Below are positions 50,301 to 52,590 of a stretch of 64,000 nt of DNA, piece by piece (position 1 is the first letter of the stretch; every line of letters starts with the position of its first letter). Both the position numbers and the translations under genes were made by a program. Source of the stretch: Phoronis australis (Eukaryota > Animalia > Phoronida); contig NMRA01000048.1 in the NCBI GenBank assembly GCA_002633005.1, positions 920,479 to 984,478 on the forward strand. The letters are read 5' to 3'. Below the pieces are notes generated by a model. That model did no database searches. It was not told the DNA's origin and worked only from the letters and a program-made list of their open reading frames with translations.

Positions 50301-52590
50301 GGGGGTAATCAAACTCTTACCACAGGCTGCCATACTCCTTCCCACAAATAATTCACAATAAACAACCCCCCAGACGAGGACCAGTGGGTGCTTGGTGCCT
50401 GTGTAACAGTCATTGTCTATGCATGGTCAGTTCTCAGGGTGCATGGTGTTTTGCGGGGTTGCAAAGGCAAAGCTTCTGCAGTAAGTGCTCTCTAACTCTG
50501 GTTAAAGTTTAACTGCCATTCCCAAATGCTTTCATTGATAAGCAAACACAACATATTGTTCGTGACCATATTACATGTTACCTGAGTGTGAGCGATGATA
50601 CGGATCACTTTGCAGTACTTCTTCATCTTGTTGAAGTCCTTCTCGATGGCCTGCTTGCCCTCCTCATCCTTCCACTTCTTGCCGTACTTGGTGAAAGCCT
50701 TCTTCTTAGACTTGTACCTGGATGTGGGGAGGGACCAGATACCGTCACCATCCTCATCACGAACACCAAGTGCGTGAGCGGAGGATTGAGAACGGGTGTG
50801 CCTTATACAGTCCATGGGCACTAATGGTGGCCAGAGGGACAGACACGTGACATGAGCTCACCTGTAGAGCAGGTAGGAGCCAAGAGGGGCAGCACATTAT
50901 TAAAGACAAGGCATGACTTTTTCCACTTAAATACAAGGTCAGCATCACTGACCAGGTTTATAATCGCAAATACAAATGAACAAAAAGAACAGAATTTTCT
51001 TGCCAAAAGTAAACAATGGTTGAACTGAATTCGGTGGAAGAAGTTAATCAGTGGAAAAGTTGCAAGTATCTGTTGTGATAACACAACACCTGCAAACCTC
51101 CACAGCAAAACCACGATCATATCAATATACTTGAAGACGTAAAAATTACCCTTTTTCTCACTTTATTTATGAACGAAACTCACTGAGAGATTCAACGGTA
51201 GCAAAATGGTGGTAGCAAAATGGTGTTTAAGACTGTAAACAAAACTTTTAATTTACTAAATACCAAGGCTTCAAAAGCCAATTAAGAATGCTACAAACTC
51301 TATATATTCATGGAGCCACAAAGAAAGACAGTGACAATTACCAGTTCTTGTAGAAGCGACGGCGGCATTCCTCATTCAAATGCTCCGCCCAGACAGTCTT
51401 GAAAGTGCGCAGCCCCTTGGGTGTCTCGATGTAGCCAACAACGCCAACAGCAATCATGGGTGGAGTTTCCACAATGGTCACTGCCTCCACGATCTCCTTC
51501 TTATTGACCTTTGATCCCGGTCTGTCCACCTCACGTACAATATGCGTCATGCCTGCCTTGTAACCAATGAAAGCCGTGAGATGGACTGGCTGACTGGCAT
51601 CATCCTTGGGGAAGGCCTTGCACTTGCCCCTATGACGTCGGCTTCTTTTCTTAGGCAGGAATGCCAAAGAGCCGTGACGAGGAGCCGAGAATTTCCGATG
51701 AGACTAAAAGAACCAGATATGGTTTTCAGGAGTTTGAAACAAAAGTCTGAATATTGCAAAGTTCAAATTTATCGCAAGTTAAGGGGCAAATTGTCCCTGG
51801 TTTTGTCTATGAAACAAGCAGAGAAATGCTTGCACATATTTAAAAACATTTTAAAAGCTTGTTTTGATTCAAGTACCTAAGAACTAAAAATGATTTAACG
51901 ACGTTAACCTGGCAAAGGCAAATTCACAGCTGCGCATGCAAAACTTTATTGGATTTAAGTGTACTGATAGACAACAGTGGTCCACCTACAAGCAACTATA
52001 AACCTGCCCTCCATCAAACAGCCTAGTTTTTTATTTGGTTTGAGAAATGATTTTTGGTTTTGTAAAGAACTGACACTTAGCAAGTAGAGCCTGCCTGCCA
52101 GGTCTCAAGCAATAGCGAACAACACATTTTCTTTGAAAGCCCAGAAATGAAATCAAATCTATTCCAATTAATGAACACTTCGTGACAAAATTCATAAACG
52201 GTAAGTGAAGGAAGGCGGGTTCTGCAGCTTCTTGTACGAACTGGAATGCACTTAGGCGGATAATTTGCAGTTAAACGTGACACAAGCCGAGTGAAGCTCA
52301 AACACGGGTGGCTTTATACCGTAGAGTGGGTGGGGGTTTAATTTTTAGGATATTACATCTCGAGAGTCGAGAACCTGTGGCTTCAAACTGCGGGTTTCTT
52401 TGACTCGGAATTTTTCGTTCACTTGGGAGACGAAATAAAGAAGTAAAAACACGAAACCGAGCACAAAAACGCATCAAATGTGTAATACAAATTATCAGTG
52501 AAATAAAAACAAACTTATGTGAGATTTATTATTTGGGAAAAGCGAGATTCCCTTAGATTTTTTCAACACGCTGGAAATCCAACCCACCAT
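47389..52590 (-). CDS. RPL3: 60S ribosomal protein L3 (uL3); exons 52590-52588 (ATG only), 51703-51342, 50717-50582, 49737-49551, 49248-49046, 48397-48242, 47544-47389
   Basis: [21 protein letters not shown]...[16 protein letters not shown]...[15 protein letters not shown]...[11 protein letters not shown]...[10 protein letters not shown]. All introns are GT-AG and in phase. Confidence 0.98.
48655..48999. mobile_element. hAT-like MITE in RPL3 intron 5 with 6-bp TSD ATAATC
   Basis: Perfect 13-bp TIR CAGGGCTTGGAAT / ATTCCAAGCCCTG with ATAATC directly on both sides. Subterminal (cc)gcggaa repeats. Confidence 0.88.
49467..49577 (-). repeat. 37-bp tandem triplication of the RPL3 exon-4 3' end plus donor site
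   Basis: Sense unit gtgtgaccaagggtaaagggttcaaag|gt(g/t)agtactt. Donor GTs at 49550, 49513 and 49476. Confidence 0.93.
50718..50900 (-). promoter_or_regulatory. Putative alternative (poison) 3' splice site and 144-nt extension of RPL3 exon 3
   Basis: Sense ...cccctcttggctcctacctgctctacAG|GTGAGC (AG at 50863-50862). Joining to exon 2 gives AAC TGG TGA. GC-rich island in an AT-rich intron. Confidence 0.65.

Follow-up and report, generated by a model that had tools for sequence, protein, structure and literature searches.

The window analysed here, a 64,000-nt stretch of a genomic contig (NMRA01000048.1) from the phoronid Phoronis australis, carries on its minus strand RPL3, the gene for ribosomal protein uL3 (Pfam Ribosomal_L3, PF00297; E 6.8e-59 at exon 2), whose best named matches are animal uL3 proteins (up to 91%, in the nemertean Tubulanus polymorphus). 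One intron of this gene, which splits a tryptophan codon and which we take to lie at the position of human RPL3 intron 3, contains a second, poison acceptor 144 nt upstream of the canonical one (Table 1), with 74% pyrimidine in the 19 nt that precede it. Use of this upstream acceptor gives FYKNW followed by an in-frame TGA, with four introns downstream by sequence (the reads described below cover only the first of them), and retention of the intron likewise places the stop at the junction. The acceptor, the codons AAC TGG TGA and the GTGAG directly after the acceptor had been pointed out in a first-pass annotation made from the sequence alone, and all are present as described.

The upstream acceptor is used in RNA. 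Three stranded raw-read runs from a single study, carrying the same species label and mapped to window positions 50381-51820, all contained the junction 51342->50861 that the first-pass annotation had suggested looking for, with 32, 38 and 11 reads compared with 733, 732 and 1019 for the canonical junction (4.2%, 4.9% and 1.1% of junction reads). A further 8, 10 and 6 reads had loose ends at the poison acceptor, read depth at 50861 climbed from about 16-33 to 61-116, and this was the sole non-canonical splice junction among those listed. With exon 3 covered at a depth of 1200-1750 and the opening 200 nt of the following intron at 0-6, the 5' part of the regulated intron stood at 12-45, revealing partial retention at about 1-3% of depth, above that of the following intron. 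Together, these data show that the upstream acceptor is real and used and that the stop is immediate. The window's poison acceptor thereby matches the known unproductive-splicing switch of mammalian RPL3, an alternative 3' splice site in intron 3 coupled to nonsense-mediated decay (NMD) (PMC3177206, PMC12811116).

The main feature of the 144-nt extension, overlooked in the earlier annotation, is a repeated hairpin. The extension is predicted to hold tandem hairpins whose 3x1 internal loop, CCNCU*ANG (the asterisk separates long and short strands), is the consensus of a C-loop. Hairpins 1 and 2 both follow the C-loop rule (long strand N-C-N-C/A-Y, short strand R-(0-2 bulged)-N), both of their closing pairs are Watson-Crick, and their loops lie at edit distance 0 to entries in the supplement of PMC4551918. 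Pairing probabilities, calculated in three sequence contexts at two temperatures (37 C and 15 C), were 0.82-0.99 for hairpin 1 in pre-mRNA and a context-dependent 0.2-0.9 for hairpin 2, while those of hairpin 0, which includes the poison acceptor, were 0.56-0.96 at 37 C and lower at 15 C. In contig X1, hairpin 1 is changed only at its bulged, variable base 50814, and hairpin 2 loses its outermost pair and one apical pair. An intron-retaining contig from a related species with exons about 92% identical (X5) aligned at 50776-50930; of the 12 differences listed there, four lie within the extension. Hairpin 1 has none of the listed changes in its stems or loop, and hairpin 0 has them in its loop only. 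A loose end of the same contig changes the inner stem of hairpin 2 from A-U to G-C and from C-G to U-G. Runs X2, X3 and X4 yielded no contig within the intron and speak neither for nor against conservation.

Other properties of the region are less distinctive. The extension was earlier described as a GC-rich island, and it does reach 56% GC compared with 36% in the rest of the intron, but this is barely above the highest 144-nt window of the gene's other introns (53%). It contains no GGG run. The folding energy of 50745-50885 is ordinary (z -1.29; 22 of 200 shuffles equally good), and Rfam yielded nothing at gathering score in the window, with three weak unrelated matches over the gene. A box C/D snoRNA or K-turn was considered for hairpin 2 and rejected, given that its GUGAUGA opposes the C-loop strand rather than CUGA and has no Rfam match.

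The first-pass annotation had drawn a different fold, with GUGAGC paired to GCUCAC around a GUGCC/GGCAC hairpin, and had suggested that this stem gates a second splicing step in which the donor recreated at 50861 is reused to give normal mRNA. The outer strands are complementary, but their pairing probability was 0.00 in all six runs, and the inner hairpin reached only 0.00-0.03 in pre-mRNA contexts (0.45-0.95 in spliced poison mRNA); because of these low values and a clash with the hairpins conserved across animals, we rejected both stems. Recursive splice sites are AG/GU ratchet points, and the window acceptor resembles them in being followed directly by a donor-like GTGAG that is close to consensus, with no change listed at AG/GTGAG in X5. 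However, the intron is just 624 nt long, the canonical acceptor is likewise followed by GT, and GT is not kept in teleosts, the only other lineage in which a used acceptor was seen and where CT follows it; the donor motif is also missing at candidate acceptors of locus L059 and of insect loci. No read starts or back-joints at 50861 were listed in these standard RNA-seq libraries, which were not built for lariats, and exon-junction reads are blind to re-splicing because its product is the canonical junction. Most simply, the GUGAG belongs to the 3' strand of hairpin 0, a hairpin with a resembling counterpart in L059, and resembles the AUGAG strand found in those with a C-loop. Structure-gated re-splicing is accordingly improbable in our judgement.

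We next considered the same intron in other animals. An acceptor and exon-start pattern retrieved 76 metagenome loci, 57 of them distinct by their last 60 nt, with lineages assigned by best named match and other loci left as unassigned animals. They include teleosts (L041, L053 and L054), insects (the L003 group and L064), a nematode-like locus (L043), a 17-member annelid-like group, mites (L027 and L072, the latter with a protein identical to that of Dermatophagoides) and a nine-member group with arthropod best matches. The intron splits the same tryptophan codon in teleost L041 and L054 and at the L053 junction. At the primary-sequence level there was nothing to align: a blastn comparison of the window intron with the 76 loci produced a single 24-nt match at chance level, shared by two duplicate loci.

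The CCNCU*ANG loop, recognized at intron 3' ends by eye and then encoded as a descriptor, was nevertheless found near the intron 3' end in 45 of the 57 distinct other loci. Under a strict motif, 84 hits fell within the final 300 nt of the introns (58 distinct ones, counting that of the window), with at least one in 46 introns and at least two in 34, compared with a mean of 2.55 (maximum 5) over 20 rounds of dinucleotide shuffling, 1 on the opposite strand, 1 across 16.5 kb of upstream intron and 3 across 57 kb of downstream sequence. The excess is roughly 30-fold over shuffles and 90-fold over flanking sequence, figures that are not formal p-values because the descriptor was composed after the introns were seen and the loci are phylogenetically redundant, forming about a dozen lineage groups (17 annelid-like loci, and 9 and 7 in two arthropod groups). 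When every well-stemmed 3x1 loop was counted by class, CC.CU*A.G came to 54 and the runner-up to 4. The loop variants were CCUCU*AUG (35), CCGCU*AUG (15), CCUCU*AAG (14), CCUCU*ACG (10), CCGCU*AAG (6) and CCACU*AUG (4).

Less circular evidence points the same way. RNAalifold, run on a plain alignment of the 17 annelid-like introns, returned the same loop unprompted, with its unpaired CUC invariant. A covariance model (R1) built from 24 hairpins of other animals, with the window excluded, ranked hairpin 2 first and hairpin 1 second across both strands of the 64 kb (Table 1), followed by a third match at E 1.7, all E values being rough. Applied to 25 further loci, R1 recovered hairpins in the untrained positives L003, L010, L013, L015, L017, L019 and L028; the 11 negative loci supplied yielded no hairpin. 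R1 detected neither hairpin 0 nor the bacterial 23S loops discussed below. In the 24-hairpin alignment, 95% of cells were paired and double changes numbered 67, a result reached by none of 500 shuffles, although this covariation is partly circular because rows were selected by a pairing descriptor. The first-pass reading of a poison acceptor in the orthologous intron is supported both by the window's reads and by teleost L053, a fully spliced cDNA-like contig. Its poison extension measures 251 nt and begins within the first of three C-loop hairpins.

Cryptic-AG splicing noise combined with chance hairpins could accommodate the overall folding z of only -1.29 and a descriptor composed post hoc. 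But no other non-canonical junction is among those listed, the motif exceeds both shuffles and flanks, and a model trained on other animals recovers both hairpins; the reads, the motif excess and the model have already largely refuted this explanation, and we give it almost no weight.

Several further observations on these loci stand apart from the motif counts. L009 and L016 are vertebrate, about 70-76% to teleost RPL3, and have the intron but no C-loop hairpin; they look like the paralog RPL3L, in which the absence would be expected if the paralog represses RPL3 yet escapes the switch. L021, L047 and L048 are cDNA-like contigs in which the later introns have all been removed and the regulated intron, or its 3' part, is kept. 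The annelid-like L001 group has a third, strongly conserved hairpin farther upstream, some 205-270 nt from the acceptor; it contains a C-loop-like variant, and candidate AGs fall in its 3' strand.

The intron loop has a close counterpart in ribosomal RNA. RNA 3D Motif Atlas group IL_73276.5 has as an instance C2680-U2684/A2725-G2727 of bacterial 23S rRNA (PMC4551918), and five of the six intron variants are exactly among those given there for the bacterial and archaeal C2680-G2727 C-loop (CCGCU*AUG, CCUCU*AUG, CCUCU*AAG, CCUCU*ACG and CCGCU*AAG). The two share a 5+3 loop closed by U-A and C-G pairs, in which two Cs are conserved, one base is stacked and variable and another is bulged, and their variant sets are nearly identical; the intron copies differ in lying in pre-mRNA as one to three tandem hairpins with stems that are often UC..GA. 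The bases for the crossing pairs C2-A6 and C4-G7 are invariant across introns, and the two helices that flank a C-loop are indicated by covariation (in part circular) and independently by the X5 changes. Judged from sequence, the intron hairpins would form the non-canonical pairs and three-dimensional C-loop. C-loops are RNA-protein binding sites (PMC2952876).

We located the loop in four bacterial 23S genes, in the helix that follows the sarcin-ricin loop; its sequence there is CCGCU*AUG in two, CCUCU*AAG in one and UCACU*AAA in one, such that three of the four have the intron type. In bacterial ribosomes, uL3 contacts this helix-96 loop alongside uL14 and bL19.

We consider it probable that the used poison acceptor and the tandem C-loops, through likely binding of surplus uL3, shift RPL3 splicing to a form destroyed by NMD. 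Surplus free uL3 would bind the tandem C-loops lying between the two acceptors. The end of hairpin 2 lies 5 nt ahead of the putative branch point at 50745, and uL3 bound there would impede use of the canonical acceptor. The spliceosome would then take the upstream acceptor or leave the intron in, and the stop-bearing poison mRNA would be destroyed by NMD. We infer the ligand, the direction of the effect and the decay from the mammalian system, in which excess rpL3 promotes the isoform (PMC3177206). What is observed directly in the window is the acceptor, its use, the stop and partial retention, and across loci the recurrence of the loop with covarying stems. More tentatively, a wider proposal can be entertained, which we hold as possible rather than probable: an array of C-loop hairpins in a single RPL3 intron would regulate uL3 in animals, kept as a structure rather than a sequence since at least the bilaterian ancestor; it would reproduce prokaryotic helix 96, changed in eukaryotic rRNA, be bound directly by uL3 and RPL3L, and supply the cis-element still missing from the account of RPL3 compensation in RPL3L cardiomyopathy.

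A number of results weigh against these proposals, in addition to the post hoc descriptor and the redundancy of the loci. The homologous loop of eukaryotic 28S helix 96 differs, reading YAWUU*ACCA in 15 of 20 parsed pieces (5 of 25 pieces were unparsed, three of them apparently non-rRNA); the introns match bacterial helix 96 and not the eukaryotic loop, so that mimicry of the host's own uL3 site is not evident in sequence. In the literature surveyed, the available text states binding of uL3 to domain VI and helix 95 and no contact with the helix-96 loop, and a cryo-EM study reports that uL3 occupancy orders domain VI except H96 (10.1101/2022.03.10.483802). The last hairpin lies 26 to 199 nt from the canonical acceptor across loci, a spread that means branch-point blocking cannot be general. 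The motif is missing from 12 of the 57 loci; these include four with plant-like best matches (L040, L042, L051 and L074), one unassigned protist-like locus (L004), the two RPL3L-like vertebrate loci L009 and L016, L073, which is not RPL3, and L047, whose intron is only 162 nt, but L022, L046 and L056 are animal-like full-length RPL3 introns that also lack it. The locus set contains no mammalian RPL3 intron. In human cells, RPL3L crosslinks upstream of the alternative acceptor, and in C2C12 cells RPL3 overexpression did not raise the isoform (PMC12811116).

The last result, together with the unlikeness of eukaryotic helix 96 to the intron loop and the role of hnRNP H1 as the key factor in human cells (PMC3177206), would also fit a genuine switch with genuine C-loops whose direct ligand is another protein, such as the helix-96 neighbours uL14 and eL24 or an hnRNP, with uL3 acting indirectly or general 60S status being read. 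This is unlikely but deserves more weight than any other alternative, and is countered by the concentration of the loop in one RPL3 intron and by the crosslinking of the uL3 paralog RPL3L to the human intron (PMC12811116). The hairpins could also be ligand-free, fixed structures that set acceptor strength or slow splicing, with the 1-5% poison form a constitutive by-product; both acceptors do lie inside predicted stems and the intron is partly retained. A passive stem, however, has no need of an invariant loop while stems vary freely, and the poison share differs about fourfold among the three samples, leaving this explanation little chance. Direct recognition of the C-loops by uL3 is the reading we prefer.

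Table 1. Features of the regulated RPL3 intron and its flanking exons (window coordinates)
Feature	Position	Strand	Basis
RPL3 coding exon 2; ends with FYKN + TG of the split Trp codon	51342..51703	-	Pfam; read depth and junctions
Regulated intron, 624 nt; splits Trp codon of FYKNW/YKSKKK	50718..51341	-	Canonical junction reads
Poison acceptor: pyrimidine tract + CAG 50864-50862 (AG 50863-50862)	50862..50885	-	Sequence; junction reads and loose ends
Hairpin 0 (predicted), poison AG/GU in 3' strand; possible C-loop variant CCUAC*GUG or plain 2-nt bulge	50855..50881	-	
Poison-isoform 5' extension of exon 3, 144 nt	50718..50861	-	Read-depth step at 50861
Premature stop TGA immediately past poison junction	50858..50860	-	Translation
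Hairpin 1 (predicted), C-loop-type loop CCUCU*AUG	50810..50840	-	Descriptor; model R1, E 0.077
Hairpin 2 (predicted), C-loop-type loop CCGCU*AUG	50750..50786	-	Descriptor; model R1, E 0.0034
Putative branch point of canonical acceptor, A at 50745; 5 nt past hairpin 2	50744..50749	-	Inferred from sequence and spacing
Canonical acceptor CAG 50720-50718 within predicted 8-bp stem (pyrimidine tract + exon start)	50714..50742	-	Pairing probability 0.74-0.98
RPL3 exon 3, YKSKKK...HTQ	50582..50717	-	Reads; translation

Elsewhere in RPL3, exon 1 (52587-52620) contributes only the ATG to the coding sequence, after a pyrimidine-rich leader of the type typical of ribosomal protein mRNAs, and its junction with exon 2 is visible in loose read ends. 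At 49465-49577, a 37-nt unit present 3.1 times repeats the end of exon 4 with its 5' splice site; splicing from a downstream copy would shift the frame, and the repeat could be a recent duplication or an assembly error. Within the regulated intron, upstream of the poison acceptor, there is a perfect 7-bp hairpin with a 3-nt loop (50938-50954). A second segment (51026-51119, minus strand) aligns in X5 while its neighbours do not; it has a long hairpin at about 51102-51049 and box C-like and box D-like ends, and had no Rfam match, and its comparison with partial large-subunit rRNA gave nothing convincing. It is possibly an intronic small RNA or a second regulatory element. The window also contains an actin exon (543-1562), a TFIIE-beta gene (5620-11666; best named match Tubulanus polymorphus, 63%), a gap of Ns flanked by tandem repeats (16261-17804) and a long tandem array (38129-40168). 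Among the large-subunit rRNA sequences, most of the contigs L077-L101, although filed under prokaryotic genomes, carried eukaryotic rRNA (a eukaryotic Rfam family matched in five of six scanned), that is, bin contamination; no eukaryotic rRNA turned up in the viral contigs that were searched for it.

Unproductive splicing of RPL3 has been known for two decades, and the RNA feature read by uL3 is unnamed in the portions of the literature surveyed. Neither a C-loop nor an array of hairpins in an RPL3 intron was found to be described there, in coverage that left out most subscription papers, and the available text of PMC5640933, PMC7247131, PMC12218528, PMC8047918 and PMC4114680 contains no prior account of the element. 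The poison acceptor thus joins a known switch, which the read data widen to the window's animal, and the C-loop array is a new form of cis-element for it. A defined 8-nt loop allows exact point mutations for binding or regulation in any animal, and its bacterial rather than eukaryotic helix-96 form raises the question of which RNA shape uL3 prefers. RPL3 compensation in RPL3L-linked neonatal cardiomyopathy is under the control of this switch (PMC12811116), so that the element would offer splice-switching oligonucleotides a target if humans have it.

Compared with the mammalian switch, the window has the same gene and an upstream acceptor that extends the next exon into a premature stop, with a similarly low steady-state share (1.4% in human control cells, rising to 42% without NMD (PMC12811116), and 1-5% in the window). 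The cis-elements described for mammals differ, being G-runs bound by hnRNP H1, with no RNA structure named in the available text (PMC3177206, PMC12811116). Beyond mammals, this intron is known to be spliced unproductively in Caenorhabditis elegans and predicted to be so in Drosophila, and Takei 2016 reports having found no conserved stretch for rpl-3 (PMC4937301). A close parallel is the L10ARE of RPL10A/rpl-1, which is likewise intronic, lies between two alternative splice sites and is conserved across animals, and which a ribosomal protein uses to regulate unproductive splicing of its own transcript (PMC4937301), as we propose for the RPL3 element. The L10ARE, however, is a single alignable stretch of 39-40 nt at 5' splice sites with demonstrated binding (PMC4937301), whereas the RPL3 element repeats a structural module, sits at 3' splice sites, is invisible to blastn and has uL3 as its putative ligand.

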